DNA from: Nemertoderma westbladi
Taxonomy: Eukaryota; Animalia; Xenacoelomorpha
Direction: 5' to 3'
NCBI GenBank assembly: GCA_032718475.1
Contig: JAUCBJ010002694.1
Location: 1-42,101, forward strand
Length of the DNA: 42,101 bases
Part shown: in pieces, positions 2,834 through 41,058 of the stretch
Position numbering within the stretch: the stretch's first letter is position 1
Layout of the letters: each line of letters begins with the position of its first letter
The notes under the pieces: generated by a model
Told to the model about the DNA's origin: nothing
The model's database searches: none
Seen by the model: only the letters and a program-made list of their open reading frames with translations
Made by a program: the position numbers and the translations under genes

Positions 2834-3000
2834 ACTCATGTAAAGAACTTTAAAAATCATTCAAATAAACTGAAAATTTATCTTCATCAAAAGTTATGTA
2901 ATATATTTTGTTGAATTATCTCAATCATTACAGCTATACAGGTATTCTACAATATTATTCCATTTACGATTCAGTTATTATTTTATTATTATCGAGAATT

Positions 3001-4092
3001 ATGTATACCTTTACGATTATGGGTTTACTTACAAATATATATTTTTGCATTGGAAGACAACAGGCAATCTATGATGTTGCAGATGCTGTTGGCAACTTAG
3101 AATCAAAAATACACATGCAGATTATGACGCGCTATCAGGAAGTTATAGGAGGGCTAGATAAATCATTTGTGTACGAAATCCTTCATCCTTGTGATAAATT
3201 ACAAAATCTTACTCGGCAACGAGAACCGCTAAGTGTAGATGAGTATAACTTACGTTACGAAATCGTTGACAATAGGTTTTATGGCCTAAACGGTAAAATC
3301 CGTTGCAATATAGACAGGTTTAGAGTGAATAGCGAACATTATTCATACATGAATATAAAACCAACATCAAAAAACAGAAAGGAAAGACAACAAGAGTATT
3401 ACAAACTGCAAAAAGTCAGTGGGGAATTACATGACTATGGTCCATGGTTGGTGATCATGCGTTCACATACAGTCGGTAATGGTCATACGGAATTTGGACA
3501 TAATGTGTTTAATTCCAATTGGGAAGATTATGTTTATGGGTTTGGTGGAACATCAGGTAACTTCTGGCTAGGCCTTGAAAAAATTTGGCAGCTCAGTAGA
3601 GGCGGAGTTCAACTAAAGATTGACATGTGGTATAATGGGTCAGGGAGTGAGGCGCCTTATCTCAACCAACATATAGATAGGAATCGTAAAGGGATTTACC
3701 ATAACCAGTCAACCAATGCATTCGCTATATATGATGAATTCAGTGTGGGATCAGCTGCAACTAACTACACTCTTCATATACGAGGTTTTCACGGTACCGC
3801 AGGAGATGATCTTGTAGGATATGATTTAATGCAAGGGATGGATTATGCTGGGAACCAATTTTCTACAAAAGATAGACACAATTCTGGTGGGGTTCTAGAC
3901 TGTGCAAAACTTCTAAATGGTGCGGGGTGGTGGTACCCAACCTTCTCTAAGAAAGTATCGACTTGGTTTGGTTGCAGGCACCTCACCGGTCCGATTTCGA
4001 GTTTGCATGATTTCAGAAATGGTGCTCCATATTGGCTCCCCTACTCGTATGGCCAGAGTTTGTACGGAGTAGAGATGAAAATCAGAGTATAG
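3001..4092 (+). CDS. Secreted fibrinogen C-terminal domain protein (FReD; ficolin/tachylectin-5/angiopoietin-like), 363 aa, intronless
   Basis: FReD motifs GPWLVIMR, FNSNWEDYVYGFG, GNFWLGLEKI, YTLHIRGFHGTAGD, FSTKDRHN, GAGWWY, EMKIR. First ATG at 3001 gives a signal-peptide-like N-terminus (the track start at 2908 is TTG). AATAAA at 4206-4211. Confidence 0.92.
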   Translation: MYTFTIMGLLTNIYFCIGRQQAIYDVADAVGNLESKIHMQIMTRYQEVIGGLDKSFVYEILHPCDKLQNLTRQREPLSVDEYNLRYEIVDNRFYGLNGKIRCNIDRFRVNSEHYSYMNIKPTSKNRKERQQEYYKLQKVSGELHDYGPWLVIMRSHTVGNGHTEFGHNVFNSNWEDYVYGFGGTSGNFWLGLEKIWQLSRGGVQLKIDMWYNGSGSEAPYLNQHIDRNRKGIYHNQSTNAFAIYDEFSVGSAATNYTLHIRGFHGTAGDDLVGYDLMQGMDYAGNQFSTKDRHNSGGVLDCAKLLNGAGWWYPTFSKKVSTWFGCRHLTGPISSLHDFRNGAPYWLPYSYGQSLYGVEMKIRV

Positions 4093-7696: not shown

Positions 7697-9267
7697 ACTT
7701 TCTTGAGATGTCTCCTAAAGGACACTGGCCTTGAAGATGCGGATAATCTCGCAAAATTTAAAATGGTCATAGGGAAGTTGTGGGTAGTGCAGTTTTGTAG
7801 ATAGGCCGGCACAACATTCATAATTCATCATTGCATTCTCATTGCATTTCGATTGGATTTTAAGGGTATTTTAAGTACCCCCCCCCCCCCCCCCCCCTCC
7901 CCTTAAGTGTATAGTAACAAATATCATTATCCTAAAGTAAAATATCATCCTAAATTCCAATGGAATAGTGCCATTTAATATTTGTTGTTTTTTTTGCAGG
8001 GTGTATTTTACCCATGCTCTGTCGGGGTCGACAAACACAATATAAAGAGTAACTGGATATAATCTCTAAGAAATTCTACATTGATCATTTTTATTGATTG
8101 TTGAATGGATGGTGAATTAATTGTTAAATTTTCGTGGTGAATTATTATTATACATGATGTTATTTATATACATGTTGTTGTTGTATGTTATAATATTTAC
8201 AGTATTTTCGTCTCTCCATGCCCAGTCACATCTCACATCACAACTTCCGACACCGCATGGGGTTTTGAAGTGATGTATTTGTATTCCCAAACTCATAGTA
8301 TCTGAGTTCTCAACCAACGCTCTAACATTTCCTTTAACACTCACTTTATATCTCTCTCTATATATACTGTATATACTGTATATCTATCTCTCATTATCAA
8401 GTACTGTAAGTGGCCCCAGGTTAAAGCGCGCTGCCACATGTTCATTCATATAACCACCCCCCTCTCGATATATTATACTGACATTATATTACATAATTAT
8501 TAATAATAATAACCCTTCACAACGCCATCAACCTCAAACAGAATTATTGAATCTCCCAATTAATTTGTTAGCCGTAGTATGCCCGTCGTGTGTTACATCA
8601 AGAATGCAAACCTCATTTTTATCGGCCTGACCCCCTCCATTCAGCATCTTGACCTCCTGTTATCACCTCGTGATGTAATAATTTATCATTATATACTTCA
8701 TTCGGAGCAATTTCGTCAGTCTTCCAATTTTTTCCACCGGTTGTCACAAATTGTTTTTACCGCTCGCTCGCTCTGCTCGCTCGCTCCCCCGTCCACTCGC
8801 TCAGTCGCTTGTTCGCCTTTTCATTCGTCCCCAATCGGTTTACTTTGCTAACACTTTATTTCTGCTGATATTTGTAACCACATATACTCGAAGTAAATGT
8901 TTCATTCATTTCCCCTCCCCTTATTTTATGATTATTTTTACTACGTTATCGAAATATATTATGTTATTTATTAGTGCTTTTATTGTCCACATTTCATTAT
9001 CATAACATTATCATAACTGCCCGTGATTTGTAAATACAAAAAGATAGAATGCGAGCTCGTTATTAAAGAAACTCAATTTTGCAACCGAAACCTCCCTTGA
9101 GTGTCCCAATGATAGACATGCGTATCGCAGTAGGCCTACCTGCAGTAGGAAGGAATATCGTATCGGCACATAGGTCTACTTATACTAGTTATAGAGTTAC
9201 AGTTACCTTCAGATGGTAGTCAGATGTGAAATAGCTGGTGTTTCAGGTTCTACATCTGCATGCAGTC

Positions 9268-9757
9268 ATGGAATGTGAGTTTTGCGCGAATTCTTCGTTT
9301 GATAATATCGCCGGGCTGTACTATTGTACGGAATGTAACTCACAGAGTCAGCATGTCAGAGAGGAGGCTGTAGAAGATACATTCAACCAGACGAGAGGCC
9401 ACCACATCGCAGAGGCCGGGGCCGGCCGTGCAAAGACAGCCCAGAAAGCCCGGACAAAGGAAGAAAGACTTAAAGTGAGGATGGGAGAACCTTGGTTAAC
9501 GATGGATGGCTTCCAGGCGATTCTTAAGTATACAACCGAGTTACTTATAAATACATTCGACTTCGATGCGAATGTTAAGGATCACGTTGGGTTTATGTGG
9601 TTTCGGTATTTGAAGGCGTGCAATTACGCCTTTACTAAGAATCCCGTTAAACCTCCGACATTACGGGATGAACTGAACGGAGTCAGCTCAGAGATGGAGC
9701 TGTACGATAAACTATGCAACCATAGCAAAGAAGGAACCGCTGTTAAACGGAAAGCAG
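9268..9757 (+). CDS. TAF1B: TAF1B/Rrn7 (RNA Pol I SL1 subunit B), exon 1
   Basis: N-terminal TFIIB-type zinc ribbon CEFC...GLYYCTEC, then the WLTMDGFQAILK...MWFRYLK block characteristic of TAF1B. Donor GCAG|GTATTT, phase 1. Confidence 0.85.
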
Positions 9758-10157
9758 GTATTTAGTAGTAGTAGTAGTAGTAGTAAGCCTAACAAACTCG
9801 GGCAGTCGGGCGTAGGCATATTTGTTATAAGTGAATTCACGTCAATATAGCTAGCAAAGATCATGTCACCCTTTTTTATGTTAGGCCTATAGGAATTGGT
9901 TTGGAGTACGAAACCACTAATAATTGTCATTTGCCATTATTTGTCTGGCCATAAGTGCATTTCTGCCCTACGATAAAAACTTTGCTAAAAACATTTTGTT
10001 AAGGACAATAGGGGTGATATGATTTATTATTAGTTTATTAAATTTTTGTCAATATTACCACAAGCATAGCGAACTTAAAGTACCTGAAATACAGTCCGTG
10101 TTGTTAAGGTAGCCTTTAGTATTGCATTTAATATACCCTGTACTACTTATGTTGTAG

Positions 10158-11782
10158 AGGATGATGTTCATGATGAAATGGTCACGGAAAACATCGACAA
10201 TCTTGACGACCTCAACATCGACGATTATAGCGATGGTGACAACGATGATACTTCGAGTTCGAGTGGCATGGAATTATCTCCTAGAATTCACGGACGAGTC
10301 GGTTGCGGCTACCGTTCCTATCGACGCAACGTTAGTGTAATCAGCCTCGACGTTATCCTAGTCATTCTCTACCTCGCTCTCAGAAACACCAGCAGCAACA
10401 TCGAGCTAGGGGACCTCGCGAGGTGGGCCTGTCTGGGACACCTCCCTTACTGGGACGCGGGAAGCCGTCTTCCACCCCAGATGAAACTCTCAATAAAGGG
10501 TGACACTTGGACCTTCTTCCCTAGGAAGCCGCCTAGTCTGATCTTGCTCTATTGGTTATCGGCGCGTCTCCAGATCCTAATGTCGCGATCCAAGAAGCTC
10601 ACCCTCCCGGACCCCCCGCTGCTCGCGCTTGTCGGTCGGTATTTGTCCGACTCGAATCTCCCCCGCGAGATTGCGACTGTCGTCGCTTCGATCCTGGACG
10701 GGTTGATGCGATGGCCGTGTAAGCGAACCGCGTGGAGGTTGATAGCTCCGCGGAAGTTCCAAGGGAAACCCGTGTTTATTGTGATCCGGGAAGCGTACGC
10801 GGCTGCGTTGATCGTGGTCGCTTGCAAACTCCTCTTTGTCGAGGCGAATGGAGATAGTGAGGAAGATGTTGTTGATAATGAGGGTGATATAGTGGGTGAT
10901 AGCGATCCTGCAGTGCCTGTTTCAAGCGGCACTGTGAATTATTGTGGCGAATTTGGCGACGGTAGTAGCGAAATGTCCGACAGTCCATCAACAGAGTGCT
11001 GCCCACCTAGTGATTCCCCCGACGAGACTACATTCCGGCTCTCCGATTGGTTCTCCTACATGCGTTTGTGGGTTGAGCGAACGCCTCGCGTCGCCGCGGA
11101 CTTTACGCTGCGCGGGAACCACGCGGACAACCCCAGCGAACTGTGCGCGGAATACAGACGGGCGTTGCTACCTCGCTACACATCGGAGCGACTAATCTCC
11201 GGACCCAGACAGGTTCTGCGCTACAATAAACCAGACCGAGTAGCCGCCAGACAGCACATAGCCGCAATGTTTAGTGATAAGACAAGTGATAAATATGTTA
11301 ACAGAACCTCCGAAGAACCAAGTTTATACTGCCTGTGGATGAAATATAACCCAACTCCTATATCTAACGAACCGGGGTCAACCAATAAATGTTTTATTTT
11401 CTCCAGCGTTTCCCCGTATATCGAGTCCCGAGTGAAGTCTCTCGGTCGATCAGAAAGCTCCACCACATCGTTGTATTCGGTAATGTCGTTCGTTAACCTT
11501 CCCGCAGGTAACAAGGTACCGATGCTGTCCATTGCTGAACCCAGTCGTATCCCGGGATATTTACAAATTCCGGAATCGGTTCGGTTACTCCTGGACTTAC
11601 TAAGCGAGATTAGCGGTCTCTCTGTTACAACTATTCTCTATTACGTACAGGACATCGAAGGGCAGATGTTCCGGAAGGAAGGAAAGGCTATTAGTGATGA
11701 TAGTGACAGTTCCGTTGATTACGACTCCACCGGAAGCCCTGAACCGGAATCCCTTACCTTGAACCGGAATCCCATACCTTGA
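10158..11782 (+). CDS. TAF1B: TAF1B/Rrn7, exon 2 (joined protein ~704 aa)
   Basis: Acceptor TTATGTTGTAG|AG joins in frame (G|AG GAT GAT) across a 400-bp GT-AG intron. LVILYLAL...LGDLARWACLGHLPY and EAYAAALIVVACKLLF match TAF1B cyclin-fold motifs. Confidence 0.85.
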
Positions 11783-12692
11783 GCCGGAATCCCTTACCTC
11801 GAACCGGAATCCCTAACCTTAAACCGGATTCCCTTACCTTGAACCGGAATCCCTTACCTTGAACCGGAATCCCTTACCATGAACCGGAATCCCTTACCAT
11901 GAACCGGAATCCCTTACCTTGAACCGGAATCCCTTACCCTGAACCGGAATCCCTTACCTTGAACCGGAATCCCTTACCATGAACCGGAATCCCTTACCTT
12001 GAACCGGAATCGCTTACTTTAAACCGGAATCCCTTACTATGAACCGGAATCCCTTACCTTGAACCGGAATCCCTTACCTTGAACCGGAATCCCTTACCTT
12101 GAACCGGAATCCCTTACCTTGAACCGGAATCGCTTACTTTGAACCGGAATCCCTTACCTTGAACCGGAATCCCTTACCTTGAACCGGAATCGCTTACTTT
12201 GAAAACCGGAATCCCTTACCTTGAACCGGAATCCCTTAACATGAACCGGAATCCCTTACCTTGAGCCGGAATCCCTTACCTCGAACCGGAATTCCTTACC
12301 ATGAACCGGAATCCCTAACCTTGAACCGGATTCCCTTACCTTGAACCGGAATCCCTTACCTTGAACCGGAATCCCTTACCTTGAACCGGAATACCTTACC
12401 TTGAACCGGAATCCCTTACCATGAACCGGAATCCCTTACCTTGAACCGGAATCGCTTACTTTGAACCAGAATCCCTTACCAAGAACCGGAAACCCTTAAC
12501 ATGAACCGGAATCCCTTACCTTGAACCGGAATCCCTTACCTTGAACAGGAATCGCTTACTTTGAACCGGAATCCCTTACCTTGAACCGGAATCCCTTACC
12601 TGAACCGGAATCGCTTACTTTGAACCGGAAGCCCTTACCTTGAACCGGAATCGCTTACTTTGAACCGGAATCCCTTACCTTGAACCAGAATC
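11741..12692. repeat. 20-bp minisatellite GAACCGGAATCCCTTACCTT, ~47 copies, overlapping the TAF1B stop codon
   Basis: Directly visible; units align in register with the 60-base lines. Confidence 0.97.
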
Positions 12693-13747: not shown

Positions 13748-16700
13748 CAAACAGATCGGATAAAAAGATCGGACAGACAAACAGATCGGACAAAGAGATC
13801 AGACAGACAAACACATCGGACAAAGAGATCAGACAGACAAACAGATCGGACAAAGAGATCACACAGATCGGACAAAGAGATCAGACAGACAAACAGATCG
13901 GACAGAGTGATCAGACAGACAAACAGATCGGACAAAGAGATCAGACAGACAAACAGATCAGACTAAGGGATCAGACAGACAAACAAATCGGGCAAAGGGA
14001 TCAGACAGACAAACAGATCGGACAAAGAGATCAGACATACAAACAGATCGGACAATGAGATCAGACAGACAAACAGATCGGACAAAGAGGTCAGACTGAC
14101 ATACAGATCGGACAAAGAGATCAGACAGACAAACAGATCGGACAAAGGGATCAGACAGGCAAACAGATCCTATAAAGGGGTCAGACAGACAAACAGAGCG
14201 GACAAAGGGATCAGACAAACAAACATATCGGACAAATGGATCAGACTGACATACAGATCGGACAAAGAGATCAGACAGACAAACAGATCGGACAAAGGGA
14301 TCATACAGACAAATAGATCGGACAAAGGGATCAGACCGACAAACAGATCGGACAAAGGATCAGACAGACAAACAGATCGGACAGACAAACAGATCAGACA
14401 AAGGGATCAGACAGGCAACCAATTCCTACAAAGGGATCAGACAGACAAACAGATCGGACAAAGAGATCAGACATACAAACAGATCGGACAAAGAGATCAA
14501 ACAGACAAACAGATCGGATAAAGAGATCAGACAGACAATCAGATCGGACAAAGAGATCAGACAGACAAACAGATCGGACAAAGAGATCAGACAGACAAAC
14601 AGATCGGACAAAGAGATCATACAGACAAACAGATCAGACAAAGGGATCAGACAGGCAAACAAATCGGACAAAGGGATCAGACTGACAAACAGATCGGACA
14701 AAGAGATCAGACATACAAACAGATCGGACAAAGAGATCAAACAGACAAACAGATCGGACAAAGAGATCAGACAGACAAACAGATCGGACAAAGAGATCAG
14801 ACAGGCAAACAGATCGGGCAAAGAGATCAGACAGACAAACAGATCGGACAAATGGATCAGACAGACAAACAGATCGGATAAAGGGATCAGAGAGACAAAC
14901 AGAGCGGACAAAGAGATCAGACAGATAAACAGATCGGACAAAGGGATCAGACAGACAAACAAATCGGACAAAGAGATCAGACATACAAACAGATCGGACA
15001 AAGGGATCAGACAGACAAACAGATCCTATAAAGGGATCAGACAGACAAACAGATCGGACAAAGGGATCAGACAGACAAACATATCGGACAAATGGATCAG
15101 ACAGACAAACAGATCGGACAAAGGGATCAGATAGACAAACAGCGGACAAAGGGATCAGACAGACAAACAGATCGGACAAAGGGATCAGACAGAAAAACAT
15201 ATCGGACAAAGAGATCAGACATACAAACAGAGCGGACAAAGGGATCAGACAGACAAACAAATCGGACAAAGGGATCAGACAGACAAACATATCGGACAAA
15301 GGGATCAGACAGACAAACATATCGGACAAAGGGGTCAGACAGACAAACAGAGCGGACAAAGGGATCAGACAGACAAACAGATCGGACAAAGGGATCAGAC
15401 AGACAAACAGATCTGACAAAGGGATCAGACAGACAAACAGCTCGGACAAAGGGATCAGACAGAAAAACAGATCGGACAAAGAGATCAGACAGATAAAGAG
15501 ATCGGACAAAGGGATCAGACAGACAAACAAATCGGACAAAGGGATCAGACAGACAAACAGAGCGGACAAAGGGGTCAGACAGACAAACAGAGCGGACAAA
15601 GGGATCAGACAGACAAACAGAGCGGACAAAGGGGTCAGACAGACAAACAGAGCGGACAAAGGGATCAGACAGACAAACAGAGCGGACAAAGGGGTCAGAC
15701 AGACAAACAGAGCGGACAAAGGGGTCAGACAGACAAACAGAGCGGACAAAGGGATCAGACAGACAAACAGAGCGGACAAAGGGGTCAGACAGACAAACAG
15801 ATCGGACAAAGGGATCAGACAGACAAACAGATCGGACAAAGGGATCAGACAGACAAACAGATCGGACAAAGGGATCAGACAGACAAACAGATCGGACAAA
15901 GGGATCAGACAGACAAACAGATCGGACAAAGAGATCAGACAGACAAACAGCTCGGGCAAAGGGATCAGACAGAAAAACAGATCGGACAAAGAGATCAGAC
16001 AGATAAACAGATCGGACAAAGGGATCAGACAGACAAACAAATCGGACAAAGGGGTCAGACAGACAAACATAGCGGACAAAGGGATCAGACAGACAAACAG
16101 AGCGGACAAAGGGGTCAGACAGACAAACAGATCGGACAATGAGATCAGACAGACAAACAGATCGGACAAAGAGATCAGACTGACATACAGATCGGACAAA
16201 GGGATCAGACAGACAAACAAATCGGACAAAGAGATCAGACATACAAACAGAGCGGACAAAGGGATCAGGCAGACAAACAAATCGGACAAAGGGATCAGAC
16301 AGACAAACATATCGGACAAAGGGATCAGACAGACAAACAAATCGGACAAAGAGATCAGACATACAAACAGAGCGGACAAAGGGATCAGACAGACAAACAG
16401 AGCGGACAAAGGGGTCAGACAGACAAACAGAGCGGACAAATGGATCAGACAGACAAACAGATCGGACAAAGGGGTCAGACAGACAAACAGAGCGGACAAA
16501 GGGGTCAGACAGACAAACAGATCGGACAAAGGGATCAGACAGACAAACAAATCGGACAAAGGGATCAGACAGACAAACATATCGGACAAAGAGATCAGAC
16601 AGACAAACAGATCGGACAAAGGGATCAGATAGACAAACAGAGCGGACAAAGGGGTCAGACAGACAAACAGAGCGGACAAAGGGATCAGACAGACAAACAG

Positions 16701-17870
16701 AACGGACAAAGGGGTCAGACAGACAAACAGAGCGGACAAAGGGATCAGACAGACAAACAGATCGGACAAAGGGGTCAGACAGACAAACAGAGCGGACAAA
16801 GGGATCAGACAGACAAACAAATCGGACAAAGGGATCAGACAGACAAACATATCGGACAAAGGGATCAGACAGACAAACAAATCGGACAAAGAGATCAGAC
16901 ATACAAACAGAGCGGACAAAGGGATCAGACAGACAAACAGAGCGGACAAAGGGGTCAGACAGACAAACAGAGCGGACAAAGGGATCAGACAGACAAACAG
17001 ATCGGACAAAGGGGTCAGACAGACAAACAGAGCGGACAAAGGGGTCAGACAGACAAACAGAGCGGACAAAGGGATCAGACAGACAAACAAATCGGACAAA
17101 GGGATCAGACAGACAAACATATCGGACAAAGAGATCAGACAGACAAACAGATCGGACAAAGGGATCAGATAGACAAACAGAGCGGACAAAGGGGTCAGAC
17201 AGACAAACAGATCGGATAAAGAGATCAGACAGACAAACAGATCGGACAAAGAGATCAGACAGATAAACAGATCGGACAAAGGGATCAGACAGACAAACGA
17301 ATCGGACAAAGGGATCAGACAGACAAACATATCGGACAAAGAGATCAGACAGACAAACAGATCGGACAAAGGGATCAGATAGACAAACAGAGCGGACTAA
17401 GGGGTCAGACAGACAAACAGATCGGACAAAGGGATCAGACAGACAAACAGATCGGACAAAGAGATCAGACAGATAGACAGATCGGACAAAGGGATCAGAC
17501 AGACAAACAAATCGGACAAAGAGATCAGACATACAAACAGAGCGGACAAAGGGATCAGACAGACAAACAGAGCGGACAAAGGGGTCAGACAGACAAACAG
17601 ATCGGACAAATGGATCAGACAGACAAACATATCGGACAAATGGATCAGACAGACAAACAGATCGGACAGAGTGATCAGACAGACAAACAGATCGGACAAA
17701 GAGATCAGACAGACAAACAGATCGGACAAATGGATCAGACAGACAAACAGATCGGGCAAAGGGATCAGACAGACAAACAGATCGGACAAAGGGATCAGAC
17801 AGACAAACAGATCGGACAAAGGGATCAGACAGACAAACAGATCGGACAAAGAGATCAGACAGACAAACAC
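13748..17870. repeat. 30-bp satellite AAACAGATCGGACAAAG(G/A)GATCAGACAGAC, ~137 copies
   Basis: Directly visible. The unit contains two related halves (AAACAGATCGGAC and AAAGGGATCAGAC) plus AGAC. Confidence 0.98.
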
Positions 17871-17977
17871 AAATAATCACAACGCAGACAGTCAAATAAC
17901 AAATATATAATGTAGATAGGACAATTTGATAATGCTCACCATAGCGAAAAATATCAACCGGCCCTATTGGGGCTCGA

Positions 17978-18021
17978 ACCCGGTACCTAGGTTTCAAACT
18001 TCTGGTTATCATCAGCCGGGT
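17978..18021 (-). ncRNA. Minimal type I hammerhead ribozyme (left-arm copy), within tRNA-like unit 17958-18043
   Basis: Exact reverse complement of 18334-18377. Confidence 0.75.
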
Positions 18022-18309
18022 GACTACTGAGCTACCAGACCGGATGAATATTTCGCTGTGGAGTGGAGTGGGAGATCATATTTAGGCCAACTAATCACTC
18101 AAAGGAAAGTACAAGTTCGTTATTCCCGTGCTCTGCCAGCCTGGGCTAGGCATTACGGGGTTACAGTGGTTTCTACAACACTGTATAATAGTTATTCTTT
18201 GAGGCATGGTTGCCATTTCTGGCAGAGCACGGGAATAACGAACTTGTACTTTCCTTTGAGTGATTAGTTGGCCTAAATATGATCTCCCACTCCACAGCGA
18301 AATATTCAT

Positions 18310-18408
18310 CCGGTCTGGTAGCTCAGTACACTCACCCGGCTGATGATAACCAGAAGTTTGAAACCTAGGTACCGGGTTCGAGCCCCAATAGGGCCGGTTG
18401 ATATTTTT
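18310..18408 (+). ncRNA. tRNA-like Pol III transcription unit containing the hammerhead
   Basis: CCGGTCT/GGGCCGG acceptor-like stem, A box TAGCTCAGT (18319), B box GGTTCGAGCCC (18375-18385), TTTTT terminator at 18404-18408. Confidence 0.7.
18334..18377 (+). ncRNA. Minimal type I hammerhead ribozyme (right-arm copy)
   Basis: ACCCGG (stem I) - CTGATGA - T AAC cagaa GTT T (stem II) - GAAA - palindromic ACCTAGGT helix III - GTA cleavage triplet (after 18371) - CCGGGT (stem I'). Confidence 0.78.
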
Positions 18409-19247
18409 CGCTATGGAGAGCATTATCATATTGTCCTATCTACATTATATATTTAATTCACCGTCACTCACCCCACAACAATTCATTTATTATTATTAAA
18501 TAACAAATATGAGACTAATGAAATTAATTTCCAACTAATGAAATTAATTTACCGTTGCCATATCAACAGTTAATTAATGGAGCCGTGAAACAAAATAATC
18601 GCCTCATGGATGGCCGTATTTTGAACCGATTATGTTCGAATGTGCCAGTAATTTACAATTTTTAAAAAACATACCTTTTTTTCTTGAATTTAAATGATAA
18701 ATTATTTTCCATAGCATTTTAAATATAAATATTTATCCAGAAAAGTGTTCTGTTCAGAATGCATTTTTAGCTAGAGCCTGGGAATAGTACCTGGAATACT
18801 GATTTCGAGAATAAATTTTAAAGTAAAACTACAACGGTCAATATTCCTCTAAATACGAATCGCTTTGTATTAAGCGTTGATGGGTGAGTACAAAACAAAG
18901 ACTCAAGACCTGTACAAAACACATGTGTAAACTTTCGTTTGGTTCCCCCAACACGCCTCTGTAACCTGCTCCTTTAAATGGCAATGGGACCTAACGCGAC
19001 TTTACCTCTTTGTTTTGTACAGATGGTATTGTGTCTTTGCATTGTACCCACACCCCCCCCCCCCCCCCCCCAAATTTAGCGTTTCGAACATGACCATTAG
19101 TCCGTGGTGCTATTATACTACAGTGAGTTGTTCTAACACGGAGCAATACCGCCTTGCTTCAAGTATCTCAGTAAAATATTAATACTAGGCCTTACCGGTA
19201 GCTGATGTGATCGTGATCTCCAGATGTAGCATATTAAAATATAGGCC

Positions 19248-21352: not shown

Positions 21353-23319
21353 ATAAGTCATGACCAGACCAGACCAAACCAACCCTGTATAGACGATAGA
21401 GCCTGAAAAGTGTCAGGCGTATAATATCAAATATATAGTCAAAAGAGGTTGATATTAGATATCAGAAAATAGCCTTCAGATTTGGAATCTCCATTAAATT
21501 CGCCACACCACCACAGGTGGAGATCATAAAAAAATATGGATCCAAAATATATAGCGCTAACACCCCATCCTCCCTTACCAGTAGTAGGGTCTTGGCCGGC
21601 TCTGCGACAGTTGGACCCCACTGACACCCATTGGGTGTCATATGACACCCAATTATCACCCTATGGGTGTCATTGGGTGTCATTGGCGCCAGACTGTCTG
21701 GGTGACACCTCCCAATTAGGCTAATTAGACCCTAATTGACAGGTGTCATCAATTAATTAGTACAATTAAACCCTAACAGGTGTCATATGACTCCTAATTA
21801 GGGTTTAATTGATTATCCTAATTAATCAGACTGATTAGCGCCCTGACACACAATGGGTCAATCAGTGTTGTCCAACTGTCGCAGAGCCGGCTCAAGAGGG
21901 TGTCATAAGTGACACCGCAGCTCTTTTATTCATTAATACTTATTTATTTATATTTAATTTTAATTAATTGTACTTTATTTTACTTTATTTATTCATTTGT
22001 ACTTTATTTTATATTAATTATTCATTTGTACTTTATGGGTATACAGCTCCCTTACTGGTAACTAATTACTCTTATCTATATCCAGACAGCTTTTTCGTTG
22101 ACCTTTGACCTTTGACCCCTCAATTAGCTTTAACCAAGCAACAGCATATTAATGATAGTTGTATCCAAGCGCCCCTGCCCCCACCCCGTGACAGCTCTGA
22201 TTACTAATTACTCGTACATATATCCAACCGCCTGCAGTTCCATAGTCTGCCGCTAGAGGGCGTATTATCTGAAAATTAACATCTTCTCTAACTTTGTTAT
22301 TTTCAATTTAACTATTTATTTCTACCTAATTTTAATTAATTATTTGTATTCTATTTTACTTTATTTATTCATTTGTACTTTATTTTAAATTAATTAATTG
22401 TATTACTTTTATTTTATATATTGATTTCTATTTTTAGATTAATTAGTTTTTATATTACTTACCGCTACTAAATGAGATCATTATTGGAAGCATCTAACCA
22501 TAGACTTGCAGCCTTATTTAGCCATAGGGTATACAGCTCCCCTACTGGTAACTATTTTGGAGTTAATGTTAGCAAAGGGCCTAAACTTAAGACAAGCTAT
22601 CGCCTAGGTTACCAGTTACGCATGAATGAGCAATTTATCGGGGCCCCTTTTAAAATTCTTTGTGCTGCGTCAGGATTGCCTCATTTAAGGAAGCCGCATC
22701 CCTATCGATAATCTAATTATGGTATCGCTAACCATTTTCAGTATACTGTATAATTAAATAGGGCCCTCTTTTAATACATAAGTTTATATATACAGTTTAT
22801 CTTCAATTTAATTTGTTTTTATTTACAACCCTAATTGTTCTACTGTAATTTATGTTTTATAATATCAAGCTATATCCGGTTAATCCATATTAATTTACTT
22901 TGTACTGAGGTTATCGAGGGCGCTCTTTCCAATGGTCCTATTCTCAAAACGATCTAACCCACTGTATAATTAATTACTTAAGACTGCGAGGTATGCGTAA
23001 TTAACACATCTCATTTACCAGTTTTCCTTAAAAACTATGAAGTTATATTGCTTAAGAGTTCTAAGGGGCGAGCCATGAGGCTAGATGTTTGAGGCTTATT
23101 TAGATATATTATTACTTAATTTGACCCCCCAATCGGCATCTACTATGGCATAGGCTATATCTTTTGCAGAGTCACAGAGTAGTATGAAGTTCCCCAGTCT
23201 GCCGCTAGAGGGCTTAATGTCTCAAAGTGAAAACCATACGGTAGCCATGAATTGGTTACTAGGCAATAATACTGCATTTTGCAACGTTAGACCTATTGCT
23301 GACCGAACGAAAACTGCCC

Positions 23320-23393
23320 TGGTTCATGCAGGGGTCGAACCCATGACATACGAGAGATGTGAATTCTACGCAACCACTACACCAAGGTGGAAC
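23320..23393 (-). ncRNA. tRNA-like unit in left arm, facing outward
   Basis: Inverted homolog of 26782-26855 with A box, B box GGTTCGACCCC and terminal CCA. Confidence 0.6.
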
Positions 23394-23456
23394 AGTAACC
23401 TTCGAATTTGTTCGTTGACGTTCGAATTTGTAAGACTCTCATTTAAGACTTGACAC

Positions 23457-23676
23457 AGACTATGCCTCACCGAGGCATAGACTATGACTCACTGAGGCAT
23501 AGACTATGCCTCACTGAGGCATAGACTATGCCTCACTGAGGCACTGAGGCATAGACTATGACTCACTGAGGCATAGACTATGCCTCACTGAGGCATAGAC
23601 TATGCCTCACTGAGGCATAGACTATGCCTCACTGAGGCATAGACTATGCCTCACTGAGGCATAGACTATGCCTCAC
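23457..23676. repeat. 22-bp quasi-palindromic satellite AGACTATGCCTCACTGAGGCAT, ~10 copies
   Basis: Directly visible; TATGCCTCA-C-TGAGGCATA dyad. Confidence 0.96.
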
Positions 23677-24067
23677 CATGGATGGGCTTTACCACTGTAC
23701 TCGCATCTGCTGTCTCATTGGCTGCTCGATGCCTCAGATTAAGGGTCTAAGACCTTCAAGCTGGTCATTTGCTTAGTTTTATAATTAGAAGGTCGTGAGT
23801 TCGAACCCTAGAAGAGCATTTTTCTTTTTCCTAGCTCTTGGTTAACTCTAGTATACACTCTAGCTTTGACTCTCCCGCCGGCTATAGTTATAGTATGCAA
23901 CCTTGGGAGTTAATGTGAGTAAAGACCAAGAGATTAGACTTCAGGCTCCCTCTATTGGTTCATTCTTCTTAACTTTATATAATAACTCAACCCGTATTTA
24001 AAGTTTTGAAAATTATGACTTAGTCGACTAATTTTCCAAAGTATATTATAAAAACATATAATTTCTT

Positions 24068-24228
24068 GAATAAATAGACCTAATAGTAATAAATATTGTG
24101 GGGTAAATACATTTATAATACTAATATAATTATTATGGATAAATAGTCCTAATACTATTATAATTGTTATGGATAAATAGTCCTAATACTAATATAATTG
24201 TTTTGGATAAATAGCCCTAACACTATTA
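24068..24228. repeat. Degenerate ~34-bp AT-rich tandem repeat (GGATAAATAGTCCTAATACTA...), 3-5 copies, downstream of the zinc-finger ORF
   Basis: GGATAAATAG(T/C)CCTAA at ~24137, 24171 and 24205, with weaker copies upstream. Confidence 0.75.
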
Positions 24229-24253
24229 TGAAAGGAACTCAAACAAACAAATG

Positions 24254-25306
24254 TCAATAGCGTCGTCCTGCGCGGGCATTTACTGAACGAGAGTTTTTTA
24301 TCATAGGTCTTCGAAAATTAGTAAAAGCTGGTTGATTTACTTTACTTTCATCTTCCTCGTTACCCAACTGTTTCTTAATTTTATTCAATTGTTCATTAAT
24401 TTTCAGTAATTTACTTTTATTTCCCAGAACCTGTCTTAATATCTCTTCTCTATTTTCCTCATTTTCTTCCATTTGTTTAATAAATTTCCGCATTTGATTT
24501 TTGTTTCCTAATATTTGTCTCAATATCTCTTCTTTATTTTCATCATTCTCTTCTAAATGTTTAATAAATTTCTGTAATTTAATTTTACTTCCTAGAACTT
24601 GGGTCAATGTCGCCTCTTTATTTTCTTCATTTTCCTTCAAATGTTTAATAATTTTCCGCAATTGATTCTTATTTCCAAGTAATTGCCTCTTTATTTCCTC
24701 ATTATCATCATTTTCATCCTCTTCTCCACTTTCCTGATCTTCACTTTCTTCACCCTCTTTCTGACCTTCACTTTCTTCATCCTCTTCCCCGCCTTCACTT
24801 TCTTCATCGTCTTCCTGTTCTTCACTTTCTTCATCCTCTTCCTGTTCTTCACTTTCTTCATTCTCTTCCTGACCTTCGCTATCTTCACCCTCTTCTTGAC
24901 CTTCACTTTCTTCATCATCATCCTGATCTTCACTTTCTTCGTTCTCAACCTCACTCTCTTCAACTTCATCCTGACCCTCACTATTTTCATTCTCCATCTC
25001 ATCATCCTCTTCTTCTCCATCTTTCTCACTCAAATTTTCCTCATTTTCTAGGGGTAACTGTTTTTGTATCCCTTTCAAAATATTCATAACTTTATGAAAT
25101 TTACTTTCCATTGTCTGTTTTATATTTAATATATCACGCTCATCTCTCTTTTTCTTTTCATCTTCACTAAAAATATCTTCGGATTTTTTAAATTTTTTTG
25201 GTAATGGAGCCATTAGTTTTTCCTTTCCATGTGTTTCCATATGACGAGATAAATTGTCTTGTCTCATTTCTTTATTACAGACCAAACAAGTTTCATGTCT
25301 ATGCAT
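24254..25306 (-). CDS. 350-aa protein: N-terminal C2H2-like zinc finger, acidic 10-aa repeats, 28-aa coiled-coil repeats; sole cargo ORF of the element
   Basis: CLVC-x11-H-x3-H, basic PKKFKK, EESEGQEE-type repeats, about four EEILRQ.LGNK..L.K.IK.LEENEENK repeats. Uninterrupted and intronless, A at -3, first ATG after a predicted Inr. Confidence 0.8.
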   Translation of the reverse strand: MHRHETCLVCNKEMRQDNLSRHMETHGKEKLMAPLPKKFKKSEDIFSEDEKKKRDERDILNIKQTMESKFHKVMNILKGIQKQLPLENEENLSEKDGEEEDDEMENENSEGQDEVEESEVENEESEDQDDDEESEGQEEGEDSEGQEENEESEEQEEDEESEEQEDDEESEGGEEDEESEGQKEGEESEDQESGEEDENDDNEEIKRQLLGNKNQLRKIIKHLKENEENKEATLTQVLGSKIKLQKFIKHLEENDENKEEILRQILGNKNQMRKFIKQMEENEENREEILRQVLGNKSKLLKINEQLNKIKKQLGNEEDESKVNQPAFTNFRRPMIKNSRSVNARAGRRY

Positions 25307-25418
25307 TATATAGCAATGTCAATTGAAAATATTGAATTTTAGCTAAATGATTTTACAAAATTTTAAATAAATTAAACTTTTATGAAAATAAATAAAACTT
25401 TTTAATATAAAACTTAGA

Positions 25419-25544
25419 GAATGACTGGGAATGCGTTGAACGGGGGTTATTATAGAGGGAGGCTAGAATGGATTATCCAATCAGAGTGCGAGGGTGAGTT
25501 AGGCAGCCAATCAGGACTCGAGGGAGGAAAGTTAAACAGCCAAT
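25419..25544 (-). promoter_or_regulatory. Pol II promoter for the zinc-finger ORF: 3x CCAAT, TATA, Inr
   Basis: CCAAT at 25477, 25507 and 25540 (30 and 33 bp apart, in NF-Y-like CCAATCAG/CCAATGAG context). Minus-strand TATAATAA at 25454-25447 and TCATTC Inr at 25424-25419, about 32 bp apart. Confidence 0.65.
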
Positions 25545-25760
25545 GAGAGAGCAGATGCGAGTACAGGGGTAAAGTGCCCGCCCATCCATGGTGAGATAAC
25601 GTCACACTAACTCTCAAGGATAGTTATACTCACCATTCAAATATCCCTCGCAAACCAGATTCCCCCCAGCATCTAACGTATTCCACTTCAATGCAAAATA
25701 TATAGAGCTTTAGTTGGATTTGAACCTGTGCTTGTAAACTTTTTTGTGCTCGTATATTGA

Positions 25761-26718
25761 AGTGAGGCATAGACTATGCCTCACTGAGGCATAGTCTATG
25801 CCTCAGTGCCTTAGTGAGGCATAGTCTATGCCTCAATGAGTCATAGTCTATGCCTCAGTGCCTCAGTGAGGCATAGTCTATGCCTCAGTGAGTCATAGTC
25901 TATGCCTCAGTGCCTCAGTGAGGCATAGTCTATGCCTCAGTGAGGTCTAGTCTATGCCTCAGTGAGGCAGAGTCTATCCCTCACTGCCTCAGTGAGGCAC
26001 TGAGTGAGGCATAGACTATGCCTCAGTGAGTCATAGTCTATGCCTCATGCCTCAGTGAGGCATAGTCTATGCCTCAGTGAGGCATAGTCTATGCCTCAGT
26101 GAGTCATAGTCTATGCCTCAGTGCCTCAGTGGGGCAGTGAGGCATAGTCTATGCCTCAGTGAGGCATAGTCTATGCCTCAGTGAGTCATAGTCTATGCCT
26201 CAGTGAGTCATAGTCTATGCCTCAGTGCCTCAGTGAGGCCTAGTCTATGCCTCAGTGAGGCCTAGTCTATGCCTCAGTGAGGCATAGTCTATGCCTCAGT
26301 GAGGCATAGTCTATACCTCAGTGAGTCAGTGAGGCATAGTCTATGCCTCAGTGAGGCCTAGTCTACGCCTCAGTGAGGCATAGTCTATGCCTCAGTGCCT
26401 CAGTGAGGCATAGTCTATGCCTCAGTGAGGCATAGTCTATGCCTCAGTGAGTCATAGTCTATGCCTCAGTGCCTCAGTGAGGCATAGTCTATGCCTCAGT
26501 GAGGCATAGTCTATGCCTCAGTGAGGCATAGTCTATGCCTCAGTGAGTCATAGTCTATGCCTCAGTGAGTCATAGTCTATGCCTCAGTGAGTCATAGTCT
26601 ATGCCTCAGTGCCTCATAGTCTATGCCTCAGTGAGGCATAGTCTATGCCTCAGTGCCTCAATGAGGCATAGTCTATGCCTCAGTGAGTCATAGTCTATGC
26701 CTCGGTGAGGCATAGTCT
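25761..26718. repeat. 22-bp quasi-palindromic satellite, inverted relative to 23457-23676, ~43 copies
   Basis: (AGTCTATGCCTCAGTGAGGCAT)n with TGAGTCA variants and short half-unit duplications. Confidence 0.97.
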
Positions 26719-26781
26719 GTGTCAAGTCTTAAATGAGAGTCTTACAAATTCGAACGTCAACGAGCAAATTCGAAGGTTACT

Positions 26782-26855
26782 GTTCCACCTTGGTGTAGTG
26801 GTTGCGTTGAATTCACATCTCCCGTATGTCATGGGTTCGATCCCCGCATGAACCA
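26782..26855 (+). ncRNA. tRNA-like (Val-CAC-derived) unit in right arm, facing outward
   Basis: GTTCCACCTTGGTGTAGTGGTT...TTCACA...GGGTTCGATCCCC...TGAACCA, then TTTT at 26862-26865. Confidence 0.62.
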
Positions 26856-27859
26856 GGGCAGTTTTCGTTCGGTCAGCAATAGGCCTAACGTTGCAAAATG
26901 CAGTATTATTGCCTAGTAACCAATTCATGGCTATCGTATGGTTTTCACTTTGAGATATTTCGCCCTCTAGCGGCAGACGGGGGAACTTCAGACTACTCTG
27001 TGACCCTGCAAAAGATATAGCCTATGCCGTAATAGATGCCGATTGGGGGGTCAAATTAAGTAATAATATATCTTAATAAGTCTCAAACATCTTGCCTCAT
27101 GGCTCGCCCCTTAGAACTCTTGAGCAATATAACTTCATGGTTTTGCGGATTGTAAATATCAAAGCTAGAGAAGATGTTAATTTTTAAACAATACGCCCTC
27201 TAGCGGCAGACTATGGAACTGCAGGCGGTTGGATATAGGTAACAGTAATTAGTAATCAGAGCTGTCACGGGGTGGGGGCGGGGGGCGCTTGGATACAACT
27301 ATCATTAATATGCTGTTGCTTGGTTAAAGCTAATTGGGGGGGTCAAAGGTCAAAGGTCAGCGATAAAGCTGTCTGGATATAGATAAGAGTAATTAGTTGC
27401 CAGTAAGGGAGCTGTATACCCATAAAGTACAAATGAATAATTAAAGTAAAATAAAGTACAAATAATTAATTAAAATTAAATATAAATAAATAGGTATTAA
27501 TGAATAAAAGAGTAATGATGGCAGAGGAGGGGTCCCCCGCCGATGAACGTAGTTGATAGTTGCTGGGAATGTGGTGAACGGGGGATGCAATAGGTAATTA
27601 TATAGCTAAATATAGACATGATGTCATAGTGATCTCATTGGTAATATAAAAACTACTTAATCTAAAAATAGAAATCAATGTATAAAGTAAAAGTAATATA
27701 TACAATTAATTAATTTAAAATAAAGTACAAATGAATAATTAATTTAGAATTAAATACAAATAAAATAAAATGCAAATAATTAATTAAAATTAAGTATAAA
27801 TAAATAAGTATTAATGAATAAAAGAGCCGCGGTGTCACTTATGACACCCTCTTGGGCCT

Positions 27860-28130
27860 CTCGGCGACAGTTAGACCCAACTCATGACTCATCGCTTAGG
27901 AATGTGACGCCTTGGGTGTCATTGGCGCCAGACTGTCTGGGTGACACCTCCCAATTAGGCTAATTAGACCCTAATTAGGGTTTAATTGTACTAATTAATT
28001 GATGACACCTGTCAATTAGGGTCTAATTAGCCTAATTGGGAGGTGTCACCCAGACAGTCTGGCGCCAATGACACCCAAGGCGTCACATTCCTAAGCGATG
28101 AGTCATGAGTTGGGTCTAACTGTCGCCGAG
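27860..28130. repeat. Subterminal hairpin: ~117-bp perfect stem, ~37-nt loop
   Basis: CTCGGCGACAGTTAGACCC...GACCCTAATT (27860-27976) is the reverse complement of 28014-28130. Confidence 0.93.
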
Positions 28131-28229
28131 CCGGCCAAGACCCTACTACTAGTTATGTATATTTCACTATTAACCATTGATTATTATTATTTTTATAGCG
28201 CATCTAAGAAATACTTTATTAGAAACCAC

Positions 28230-31830: not shown

Positions 31831-34800
31831 AACTATACTACCGTTGTAGTAGCTGCACTACCGTAGAATCTACACTACCGTTGTAGTAGCTGCACTACCG
31901 TAGAAACTACACTACCGTTGTAGTAGCTGTACTACCGTATAAATTATACTACCGTTGTAGTAGCTGCACTACCGTAGAATCTATACTACCGTTGTAGTAA
32001 CTGCACTACCGTATAAACTATACTACCGTTGTAGTAGCTGCACTACTGTAGAAACTATACTACCGTTGTAGTAGCTGTACTACCGTATAAACTACACTAC
32101 CGTTGTAGTAGCTGCACTACCGTAGAATCTATACTACCGTTGTAGTAGCTGCACTACCGTAGAATCTATACTACCGTTGTAGTAGCTGCACTACCGTATA
32201 AACTATACTACCGTTGTAGTAGCTGTACTACCGTATAAACTATACTACCGTTGTAGTAGCTGCTCTACCATAGAAACTACACTACCGTTGTAGTAGCTGT
32301 ACTACCGTAGAATCTATACTACCGTTGTAGTAGCTGCACTACCGTAGAAACTATACTACCGTTGTAGTAGCTGCACTACCGTATAAACTATACTACCGTT
32401 GTAGTAGCTGCACTACCGTAGAATCTATACTACCGTTGTAGTAGCTGTACTACCGTATAAACTACACTACCGTTGTAGTAGCTGCACTACCGTAGAAACT
32501 ATACTGCCGTTGTAGTAGCTGCACCACCGTTGTAGTAGCTGCACTACCGTAGAAACTATACTAACGTTGTAGTAGCTGCACTACTGTAGAAACTATACTA
32601 CCGTTGTAGTAGCTGCACTACCGTACAAACTATACTACCGTTGTAGTAGCTGCACTACCGTAGAAACTACACTACCGTTGTAGTAGCTGCACTACCGTAT
32701 AAACTATACTACCGTTGTAGTAGCTGCACTACCGTAGAATCTATAATAACGTTGTAGTAGCTGCACTGCCGTTGTATTAGCTGCACTACCGTAGAAACTA
32801 CACTACCGTTGTAGTAGCTGCACTACCGTAGAAACTATACTACCGTTGTAGTAGCTGCACTACCGTAGAAACTACACTACCGTTGTCGTAACTGCACTAC
32901 CGTATAAACTATACTACCGTTGTAGTAGCTGCACTACAGTAGAAACTATACTACCGTTGTAGTAGCTGCACTACCGTAGAAACTATACTACCGTTGTATT
33001 AGCTGCACTACCGTAGAAACTACACTACCGCTGTAGTAGCTGCACTACCGTAGAAACTATACTACCGTTGTAGTAGCTGCACTACCGTAGAAACTATACT
33101 ACCGTTGTAGTAGCTGTACTACCGTATAAACTACACTACCGTTGTAGTAGCTGCACTACCGTAGAAACTATACTACCGTTGTAGTAGCTGCACTATCATA
33201 GAAACTACACTACCGTTGTAGTAGCTGCACTACCGTATAAACTACACTACCGTTGTAGTAGCTGCACTACCGTAGAAACTATACTACCGTTGTAGTAGCT
33301 GCACTACCGTATAAACTACACTACCGTTGTAGTAGCTGCACTACCATAGAAACTACACTACCGTTGTAGTAGCTGCACTACCGTAGAAACTACACTACCG
33401 TTGTAGTAGCTGCACTACTGTAGAAACTACACTACCGTTGTAGTAGCTGCACTACAGTAGAAACTATACTACCGTTGTAGTAGCTGCACTACCGTAGAAA
33501 CTACACTACCGTTGTAGTAGCTGCACTACCGTAGAAACTACACTACCGTTGTCGTAGCTGCACTACCGTAGAAACTACACTACCGTTGTAGTAGCTGCAC
33601 TACCGTAGAAACTATACTACCGTTGTAGTAGCTGCACTACAGTAGAAACTATACTACCGTTGTAGTAGCTGCACTACCGTAGAAACTATACTACCGTTGT
33701 ATTAGCTGCACTACCGTAGAAACTACACTACCGCTGTAGTAGCTGCACTACCGTAGAAACTATACTACCGTTGTAGTAGCTGCACTACCGTAGAAACTAT
33801 ACTACCGTTGTAGTAGCTGCACTACCGTTATATTAGCTGCACTACCGTAGAAACTATACTACCGTTGTAGTAGCTGCACTACCGTATAAACTATACTACC
33901 GTTGTAGTAGCTGCACTACCGTAGAAACTACATTACCGTTGTAGTAGCTGCACTACCGTATAAACTATACTACCGTTGTAGTAGCTGCACTACCGTAGAA
34001 TCTATAATACCGTTGTAGTAGCTGCACTGCCGTTGTATTAGCTGCACTAGCGTAGAAACTACACTACCGTTGTAGTAGCTGCACTACCGTAGAAACTATA
34101 CTACCGTTGTAGTAGCTGCACTGCCGTTGTATTAGCTGCACTACCGTAGAAACTACACTACCGTTGTAGTAGCTGCACTACCGTAGAAACTATACTACCG
34201 TTGTAGTAGCTGCACTACCGTAGAAACTACACTACCGTTGTAGTAACTGCACTACCGTAGAAACTATACTACCGTTGTAGTAGCTGCACTACAGTAGAAA
34301 CTATACTACCGTTGTAGTAGCTGCACTACCGTAGAAACTATACTACCGTTGTATTAGCTGCACTACCGTAGAAACTACACTACCGCTGTAGTAGCTGCAC
34401 TACCGTAGAAACTATACTACCGTTGTAGTAGCTGCACTACCGTAGAAACTATACTACCGTTGTAGTAGCTGCACTACCGTTGTATTAGCTGCACTACCGT
34501 AGAAACTATACTACCGTTGTAGTAGCTGCACTACCGTATAAACTATACTACCGTTGTAGTAGCTGCACTACCGTAGAAACTACACTACCGTTGTAGTAGC
34601 TGCACTACCGTATAAACTATACTACCGTTGTAGTAGCTGCACTACCGTAGAATCTATAATACCGTTGTAGTAGCTGCACTGCCGTTGTATTAGCTGCACT
34701 ACCGTAGAAACTACACTACCGTTGTAGTAGCTGCACTACCGTAGAAACTACACTACCGTTGTCGTAACTGCACTACCGTATAAACTATACTACCGTTGTA

Positions 34801-40800: not shown

Positions 40801-41058
40801 CCGTTGTCGTAGCTGCACTACCGTAGAAACTACACTACCGTTGTAGTAGCTGCACTACCGTAGAAACTATACTACCGTTGTAGTAGCTGCACTACAGTAG
40901 AAACTATACTACCGTTGTAGTAGCTGCACTACCGTAGAAACTATACTACCGTTGTATTAGCTGCACTACCGTAGAAACTACACTACCGCTGTAGTAGCTG
41001 CACTACCGTAGAAACTATACTACCGTTGTAGTAGCTGCACTACCGTTATATTAGCTGC
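31831..41058. repeat. 37-bp satellite CTA(T/C)ACTACCGTTGTAGTAGCTGCACTACCGTAGAAA, ~250 copies, with higher-order structure
   Basis: Directly visible 9.2-kb array. The unit is 20+17 bp with both subunits sharing ACTACCGT; occasional extra 20-bp monomers. Confidence 0.98.

Follow-up and report, generated by a model that had tools for sequence, protein, structure and literature searches.

A polymorphic insertion of an abundant hammerhead-bearing tandem monomer with a tRNA-like body in Nemertoderma westbladi, probably written by a borrowed Penelope-like protein

A contig of the Nemertoderma westbladi genome (JAUCBJ010002694.1 of assembly GCA_032718475.1, positions 1 to 42,101; the whole of this 42-kb stretch is referred to as the window) carries what is probably a polymorphic insertion of an abundant, non-coding tandem monomer of about 365 nt. 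Each monomer contains a type I hammerhead motif within a tRNA-like body, and the insertion was likely written by a borrowed Penelope-like RT/GIY-YIG protein. The family is probably active, with probably thousands of copies. The initial annotation had taken the foldback at this locus for the element itself; the foldback is instead one insertion product of the monomer.

The positions of the features are given in Table 1. Over 234 aligned columns, the two inverted arms (17901-18139 and 18219-18454) differ by three substitutions and two indels (2 and 5 nt); the left arm's outermost 6 nt also form the final 6 nt of the left duplication. The flanking 13-mer occurs exactly twice in the window. The hammerhead pattern likewise has only two matches there, one per arm, and a 42-nt stretch is identical in both. 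Near-identical arms around a 79-nt spacer, an identical ribozyme in each arm and a 13-bp target-site duplication (TSD), all described in the initial annotation, were thus borne out. No further copy of the element was found elsewhere in the window. The spacer is the part of the monomer that was not reached by the inverted copy.

Table 1. Features of the insertion and its immediate flank (positions in the window)
Feature	Position	Strand	Remarks
Left target-site duplication, 13 bp	17894..17906	+	Single copy in the empty-site contigs
Inverted, 5'-truncated monomer copy without tail	17907..18139	-	Outer end, equivalent to 18448, recurs in the family
tRNA-like body, inverted copy	17958..18042	-	A box to B box match 18034-17970
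Type I hammerhead motif, inverted copy	17978..18021	-	Predicted cut between 17984 and 17983
3-nt microhomology, inversion junction	18137..18139	.	End of inverted copy is start of forward copy; sequence and family loose ends before 18137 and 18154
Forward copy, 361 nt, non-coding	18137..18497	+	One monomer of ~367 nt less 6-9 nt
79-nt "spacer"	18140..18218	+	Normal 5' portion of the monomer; many copies in the family
tRNA-like body, forward copy	18311..18397	+	Boxes A (from 18319; shortened D loop) and B (18375-18385), with an acceptor-like stem; collinear with real tRNAs given insertions of 3 and 12 nt
Type I hammerhead motif, forward copy	18334..18377	+	Between A and B boxes; pattern match
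T5 run	18404..18408	+	Predicted Pol III terminator; mirror at 17947-17951
One-sided tail, 43-49 nt	18449..18497	+	Between two recurrent family ends
Right target-site duplication	18498..18510	+	13-mer, second occurrence in the window
30-bp satellite array (flank, outside the element)	14367..17869	+	Ends 24 bp left of the insertion

The tail is rich in A and C (79% over 18455-18482, the first 28 nt past the arm), and its (ATT)n end holds only about three units. Family contigs continue through this end into the next monomer, indicating that it is an internal part of the unit and no added simple-repeat tail. The annotated tail is one-sided, as had been claimed, but it is a templated extension of Penelope-like element (PLE) type and not an added 3' tail.

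Nine sequencing runs were listed, of which six contained the stretch or part of it (runs are referred to as X1, X2 and so on). An empty-site allele with a single 13-mer was looked for and found in X1, X2 and X3, where single-copy contigs (depth 14-20) start an exact match to the window at 18498, the right junction. The loose end of these contigs is identical to window positions 17864-17893 (30 of 30 letters), so that they read left flank, one 13-mer, right flank. Three of the four runs placed on the right junction gave the empty allele, from two samples and two studies; X6 gave nothing. The filled allele is known from the window alone and is carried by no listed contig. Since contigs from two independent samples have the empty site with a single 13-mer, the insertion is polymorphic. 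Up to 6 nt on the left and 2 nt on the right can be attributed to element or target alike, and the strict duplication is therefore 5-13 bp; the TSD is proven by the empty site at one locus. The target site is 92% AT, and both inferred nicks read ATWT^GA. Divergence was about 2% between the two arms and about 1% between the flank alleles, so that the arms may stem from one template or from two. An 11-nt stretch of the window at 18538-18548, a local duplication 28 nt to the right of the insertion, is missing from all three empty-site contigs.

In X1, contig depths over 18140-18524 added up to 13,802-211,950, compared with 18-20 in the flank; this depth is not a copy number, but it suggests a family of thousands of copies. 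In X4 the flank was without cover. Head-to-tail joints lead from 18497 to 18154 with 18 letters between them in X1 (depth 390) and X4 (depth 37), and from 18495 to 18154 with 20 letters between them in X2 (depth 609). The tandem joint to 18154 gives a monomer of 362 nt. In a second subfamily the tail enters the spacer start (nine X1 contigs behind 18505), which gives a monomer of about 367 nt; additional loose ends of this subfamily lie before 18154 (five contigs each in X1 and X2) and before 18137 (one X2 contig). The sequence preceding 18137 and 18154 is tail sequence and not the 3' end of an endonuclease, and no ORF stands between one unit and the next.

Two recurrent 3' ends, separated by about 45-50 nt, were seen among the loose ends listed (21 of 494). 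At the first, near 18448-18450 (loose ends at about 18439-18450), the monomer gives way to unrelated flank in 31 contigs of X1 and 25 of X2, and the inverted arm at this locus terminates there. The second, at 18494-18500, was seen in two and three contigs of X4 and in one of X5. The subfamilies are alike over 18154-18240 and divergent behind it in loose ends of X1, X2 and X5, so that the middle of the monomer (18240-18310) is modular. Two contigs of X5, which is labelled as organism B, have 0, 0 and 2 differences to 18154-18240, 18368-18453 and 18463-18500, respectively; mislabelling, contamination, a close relative or transfer may account for them, and, X5 being only presumed to be an RNA run, they were not counted as evidence of expression.

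The geometry of the locus, an inverted copy beside a forward copy, was seen at at least six other breakpoints (6 of the 15 joints listed), indicating that the inversion is not unique to this locus, in line with the initial annotation. The joints are short contigs with shorter sides of 20-30 nt, flagged as less reliable, and 44 more lie beyond the 15 listed. The other nine listed joints were left out of the inversion count: 18021/18238 and four "skips" (deletions in unit terms), the tandem joint, 18279/18417 (possibly an internal hairpin), 18251/18340 (orientation unclear) and 17901-18508. The last contains 23 unexplained letters that resemble the outer end of the arm, at about twice the single-copy depth in X1 and X2. 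At one of the six joints with the geometry of the locus, from 17983 to 18372 (X1 and X2; side of 22 nt), both arms end at the predicted ribozyme cut, which is a weak hint of cleaved templates.

In the forward copy, the hammerhead comprises a helix I of 6 bp, the core CUGAUGA (18340-18346), a weak helix II (U-U followed by 3 bp), GAAA (18360-18363), a 2-bp helix III with a palindromic loop and the triplet GUA (18369-18371). Cleavage is predicted after 18371, between the A and B boxes. Rfam gave no match at gathering level in the stretch searched; a match to HH9 was below threshold (19.7 bits compared with a gathering score of 52, E = 0.042), and a match to mir-4798 was merely the hairpin. Family variants of at least 5% within 18335-18376 fall at N7, at position 10.1 and in loop II, and none falls in the core. 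Metagenome matches to a hammerhead followed by a B box (53 loci) were rejected as chance: none of the 53 had an A box, helix I exceeded three pairs in one of the 53, which was AT-rich, and none matched the element by blastn.

Folding predictions gave helix I a probability of at most 0.01 in all five single-molecule folds. In the short RNAs the predicted block on helix I comes from pairing between the A-box region and the core; in the read-through RNA it comes from the antisense arm, which is transcribed first. The ribozyme-ready fold is predicted to cost 4-7 kcal/mol, and the monomeric ribozyme is thus predicted to be blocked. The initial annotation had proposed that the transcript of either strand contains a ribozyme; the sequence is indeed present, but read-through meets the antisense arm first and the core is predicted to be fully paired. 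A dimer is predicted to be favoured (-63.6 compared with -49.2 kcal/mol), which was attributed to the palindromic helix III, and its fold may or may not be the active one. A preference for dimers is described for metazoan hammerheads in the available text of PMC4209133.

The A-box to B-box consensus pattern had two matches, one per arm, and none in 100 shuffles. ARAGORN found no tRNA at default settings. With relaxed settings it made a call only at 80% of the threshold, where 135 of 1,000 shuffles also yielded calls. Judged by sequence, the bodies are tRNA-like but are not tRNA genes. Of the two tRNA-hammerhead genes that had been annotated, the hammerhead and the A and B boxes in each arm therefore stand, and the designation as tRNA genes does not. 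The A box of the copy in the window is without its 3' GG. Fuller D arms were seen in low-agreement loose-end consensuses (20 and 14 contigs), and other copies seem to retain the GG of the A box.

The hammerhead lies in tRNA register, with its core at the anticodon loop and its cleavage triplet at variable-loop positions 46-48. Against four tRNAs of viral contigs, the body aligns collinearly over its whole length with a single gap of 12 nt; mismatches fall in the shortened D loop and in a 3-nt insert in the anticodon. Counted from the T loop, the element reads AGGUA at positions 44-48, where AGGUC is the commonest sequence (16) among 104 Asn tRNAs, and GUH occupies positions 46-48 in 120 of 156 box-selected tRNAs. 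When the body was fitted to a profile of these 156 tRNAs with free gaps, the best solution had insertions of 3 nt and 12 nt and scored 15.2 bits. This fit was reached by 1 of 400 plain shuffles and by 25 of 400 controls that kept the catalytic core in place, indicating that the register is real and that the tRNA likeness outside the core is only marginal (about P = 0.06). The comparison tRNAs were all from viral contigs. Candidates for the isotype are Asn, Met and Ile. ARAGORN reads Ile(GAT); the anticodon-arm pattern picks tRNA-Asn(GTT) in 111 of 111 cases from a set that was itself selected by that pattern; and in the set selected by boxes only, the best matches were to tRNA-Met(CAT), at 20 of 27 positions. 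A blastn search of the tRNA-like body against phages gave no match.

A run of T residues terminates transcription by Pol III. The T5 run begins 19 nt past the B box, and the predicted Pol III transcript is about 97 nt long. Because this run would stop Pol III before both start sites of reverse transcription, mobilisation needs read-through or another polymerase. The nested arrangement may have had either of two histories: the hammerhead may have originated inside a tRNA, or an existing hammerhead may have recombined into a tRNA at look-alike motifs. A more complete scenario is tentative and, taken as a whole, rather doubtful. The ribozyme would have arisen in a tRNA gene, where a 3-nt insertion turned the anticodon loop into CUGAUGA, GAAA and half of helix III came with an insertion of 12 nt, and the cleavage triplet was taken from the variable loop. 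It would have its own Pol III promoter, its cut ends would be framed for tRNA ligase, and it would ride Penelope enzymes as a circular RNA, the present insertion recording a single, exact passage of reverse transcription round that circle, with the second strand primed at the second start site.

The element has no notable open frame, and an ATG within the hammerhead core opens a frame that ends after 37 codons. Outside the four large arrays of the window, none of the 83 frames of at least 60 codons matched an RT or a GIY-YIG domain. Other features of the window include a frame with a Fibrinogen_C domain at 2902-4089 (E = 5e-22) and TAF1B/Rrn7-like stretches in two long frames (9235-9762 and 10088-11779; Pfam below cut-off), possibly a retrocopy, which end in a 20-bp tandem array (11740-12692). 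Satellite arrays consist of 117 copies of a 30-bp unit (14367-17869) and 248 copies of a 37-bp unit (31837-41046). A nested foldback at 21577-28153 pairs 21577-22036 with 27720-28153 (75%), 21921-22307 with 27149-27512 (89%) and 23031-23676 with 26477-27144 (93%). It has 22-bp subrepeats in its inner arms, a short hairpin at 27850-28140 and partial copies at 2-114 and 773-1424, and it has the appearance of an FB-type DNA foldback element.

PLE insertions are described as truncated at the 5' side, frequently accompanied by a neighbouring inverted copy, and as having a 30-40-bp tail at one end (Craig et al., PMC8557442), and the same layout is described with TSDs of 9-10 bp (Arkhipova et al., PMC3846280), in the available text of both papers. 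The PLE protein PAc cleaves both strands of AT-rich DNA and begins to reverse-transcribe at two internal sites, both within an AC-rich stretch, so that the tail is the interval between them; uncut RNA is its substrate, and the starts are at non-homologous sites (Frangieh et al., PMC11167929). The insertion studied here agrees with this course in each point compared (the AT-rich target, the two nicks, the position of the ends after the predicted cut, the AC-rich tail and copying through the intact ribozyme) and probably followed a similar one. The template RNA would come from tandem source loci, be cut to monomers by the ribozymes, either as dimers or with the aid of protein, and then be circularised. 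A PLE endonuclease would nick both strands up to 13 bp apart. The 3' end of the bottom strand would prime at the distal start site (18497) and copy 361 nt through an uncut ribozyme, halting at the place that its own primer would occupy on a circular monomer. The 3' end of the top strand would prime at the proximal start site (18448) and give the shorter inverted copy. The two cDNAs would then be joined at the 3-nt microhomology, and the tail would be the interval between the two start sites.

The ends of the element lie 77 and 126 nt after the predicted cut. By eye, the nucleotides that the forward copy lacks agree with the initial 8 nt of the duplication at 7 of 8 positions. A single passage round a circular RNA would leave a forward copy 6-9 nt short of a monomer, as seen here. 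This is one post hoc case that concerns about 9 of 367 positions, and stalling on a linear multimer might have the same result. Primer-template matches at the junctions, also judged by eye, were 6 of 6 on the left and 7 of 8 on the right, and such matches are cheap on AT-rich sequence. The foldback copy itself is probably a dead end.

An autonomous, protein-coding PLE, truncated at the 5' side and reduced to pLTR plus tail, could instead have been inserted here as the usual inverted pair, with no separate non-autonomous family. Truncated autonomous PLEs typically show identical insertion geometry, the ATG in the hammerhead core is near where the ORF of PAc begins, and the divergence of the subfamilies behind 18240 would also fit. 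The tail, however, rejoins the spacer start directly in contigs of X1, X2 and X4; tail sequence rather than the 3' end of an endonuclease stands before 18137 and 18154 among the 21 of 494 loose ends listed; and the frame of the core ATG is too soon closed. We regard an autonomous source as unlikely, although a minority of copies might carry an ORF. It is more improbable still that a tRNA-derived SINE was moved by an ordinary LINE, with the inversion produced by twin priming and (ATT)n as the 3' tail. The A and B boxes, the long TSD and the primer matches at both junctions agree with such a SINE, and Schistosoma offers a precedent in tRNA-derived SINE-like elements with hammerheads. In the forward copy, however, the tRNA-like head begins only after 174 nt, in mid-copy rather than at the 5' end; the (ATT) end is copied from a template and leads into the following monomer; and the T5 run separates the B box from the tail. 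What the inverted arm repeats is the 3' portion of the forward copy, beginning at a fixed end of the family, whereas the segment inverted in twin priming, as known from L1, is another, 5' portion of a single RNA.

A DNA foldback element or MITE, with the arms as terminal inverted repeats, would account for near-perfect arms of about 240 bp and would have company in the other large foldback of the window. This reading is already largely refuted, and we give it very little probability, since the 43-49-nt tail lies inside the duplication on one side only, the inner breakpoints differ among copies and the unit also occurs head to tail. The preference of the initial annotation for retroposition over a MITE is upheld by the same observations. 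An assembly or chimeric-read artefact would explain why none of the listed contigs has the filled allele, and the site does abut a 3.5-kb satellite. The exact 13-bp duplication relative to the empty allele, the five differences between the arms and an outer end at the recurrent boundary of the family make an artefact equally hard to believe. Insertion of a tandem monomer by a borrowed Penelope-like protein is the best explanation. Points against it are that no autonomous partner was found among the 83 frames of the window, that the tail is longer than the 30-40 nt described for PLEs, that the primer matches at the junctions are unlike the non-homologous starts of PAc, that the joints come from short contigs, that the filled allele is seen in the window alone, and that helix I is improbable in all the single-molecule folds. 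The non-autonomous Penelope-like or retrozyme-like insertion first suggested for this locus accords with the empty site, the tandem monomers, the two recurrent ends and the variable inversion points.

The element resembles the non-LTR retrozymes of metazoans, which the available text of Cervera and de la Pena 2020 (PMC7229834) describes as non-coding tandem monomers of 170-400 nt with a type I hammerhead. The likenesses to the retrozymes so described include the size of the non-coding monomer (here 362-367 nt), one hammerhead per unit, head-to-tail copies, a 6-bp helix I, a short palindromic helix III, a GC content under 50% and a TSD of more than 4 bp. The U-U at the base of helix II is shared with HHR_Amex2 of the axolotl, as far as its description was available. 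By sequence, the element would work like a non-LTR retrozyme, having the monomer, the hammerhead and the tandem copies. It differs in the A and B boxes and the tRNA-like body around the ribozyme, whereas retrozymes seem to be without promoters in the available text of PMC7761336; the text available of PMC5680766 and PMC10886601 added nothing on the promoter point. PLEs have been proposed as the mobilisers of retrozymes (PMC7229834, text available), and this dependence was argued from co-occurrence and pLTR homology in the accessible part of a preprint (Li, Clavereau and Pollet 2026, bioRxiv 10.64898/2026.07.22.740005). That part mentions neither "tRNA" nor "tail", whereas the link to PLEs here lies in the anatomy of the insertion and the empty site.

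With the EN+ PLEs (Penelope/Poseidon and Neptune; Pen2a_Av and PAc), as described in the portions of the sources at hand, the insertion shares an inverted 5'-truncated copy, a one-sided tail, a TSD of about 9-13 bp, an AT-rich target, an AC-rich tail downstream of the hammerhead and copying through an uncut ribozyme. It differs from them in having no ORF, in a tail that leads back into the monomer and is 43-49 nt long, and in a hammerhead of the canonical type with a short helix III, whereas theirs is of the minimal PLE type. Schistosoma's Sm-alpha and Sj-alpha elements are described in the available text as SINE-like and tRNA-derived, with a Pol III-type promoter followed by a hammerhead (PMC6765202, PMC2770079). 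On that description they are alike in being short tRNA-derived repeats with a Pol III-type promoter and a hammerhead that occur in tandem. In Sm-alpha and Sj-alpha, however, the hammerhead follows the promoter and the tRNA-Gln copies are complete enough for tRNAscan, whereas the predicted cut here lies between the boxes. The core of a viroid hammerhead resembles an anticodon loop, with recruitment of tRNA ligase proposed, according to the accessible text of Ortola and Daros (bioRxiv 10.1101/2022.01.19.477025). There the mimicry is within a viroid, whereas here the core is at the anticodon position of a whole tRNA-like body.

Retroposons that combine a tRNA and a hammerhead are thus already known from schistosomes; what is unusual here is a hammerhead between the A and B boxes and in tRNA register. 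No report of a hammerhead nested in tRNA register within a PLE-type insertion was found in the literature covered, which was mostly open access and without Repbase, and the original papers on Sm-alpha may bear on this. In 2020 it was undecided which enzyme mobilises animal retrozymes, and the 2026 preprint built its case on co-occurrence and pLTR homology. Because a retrozyme-type monomer is found here with PLE anatomy at a known empty allele, the nicks, the start sites and the template length can be read from one event. The nesting in tRNA register would offer a concrete way for hammerheads to emerge from tRNA genes or to enter them by recombination, and it may provide a natural, putative promoter for elements that are said to have none.
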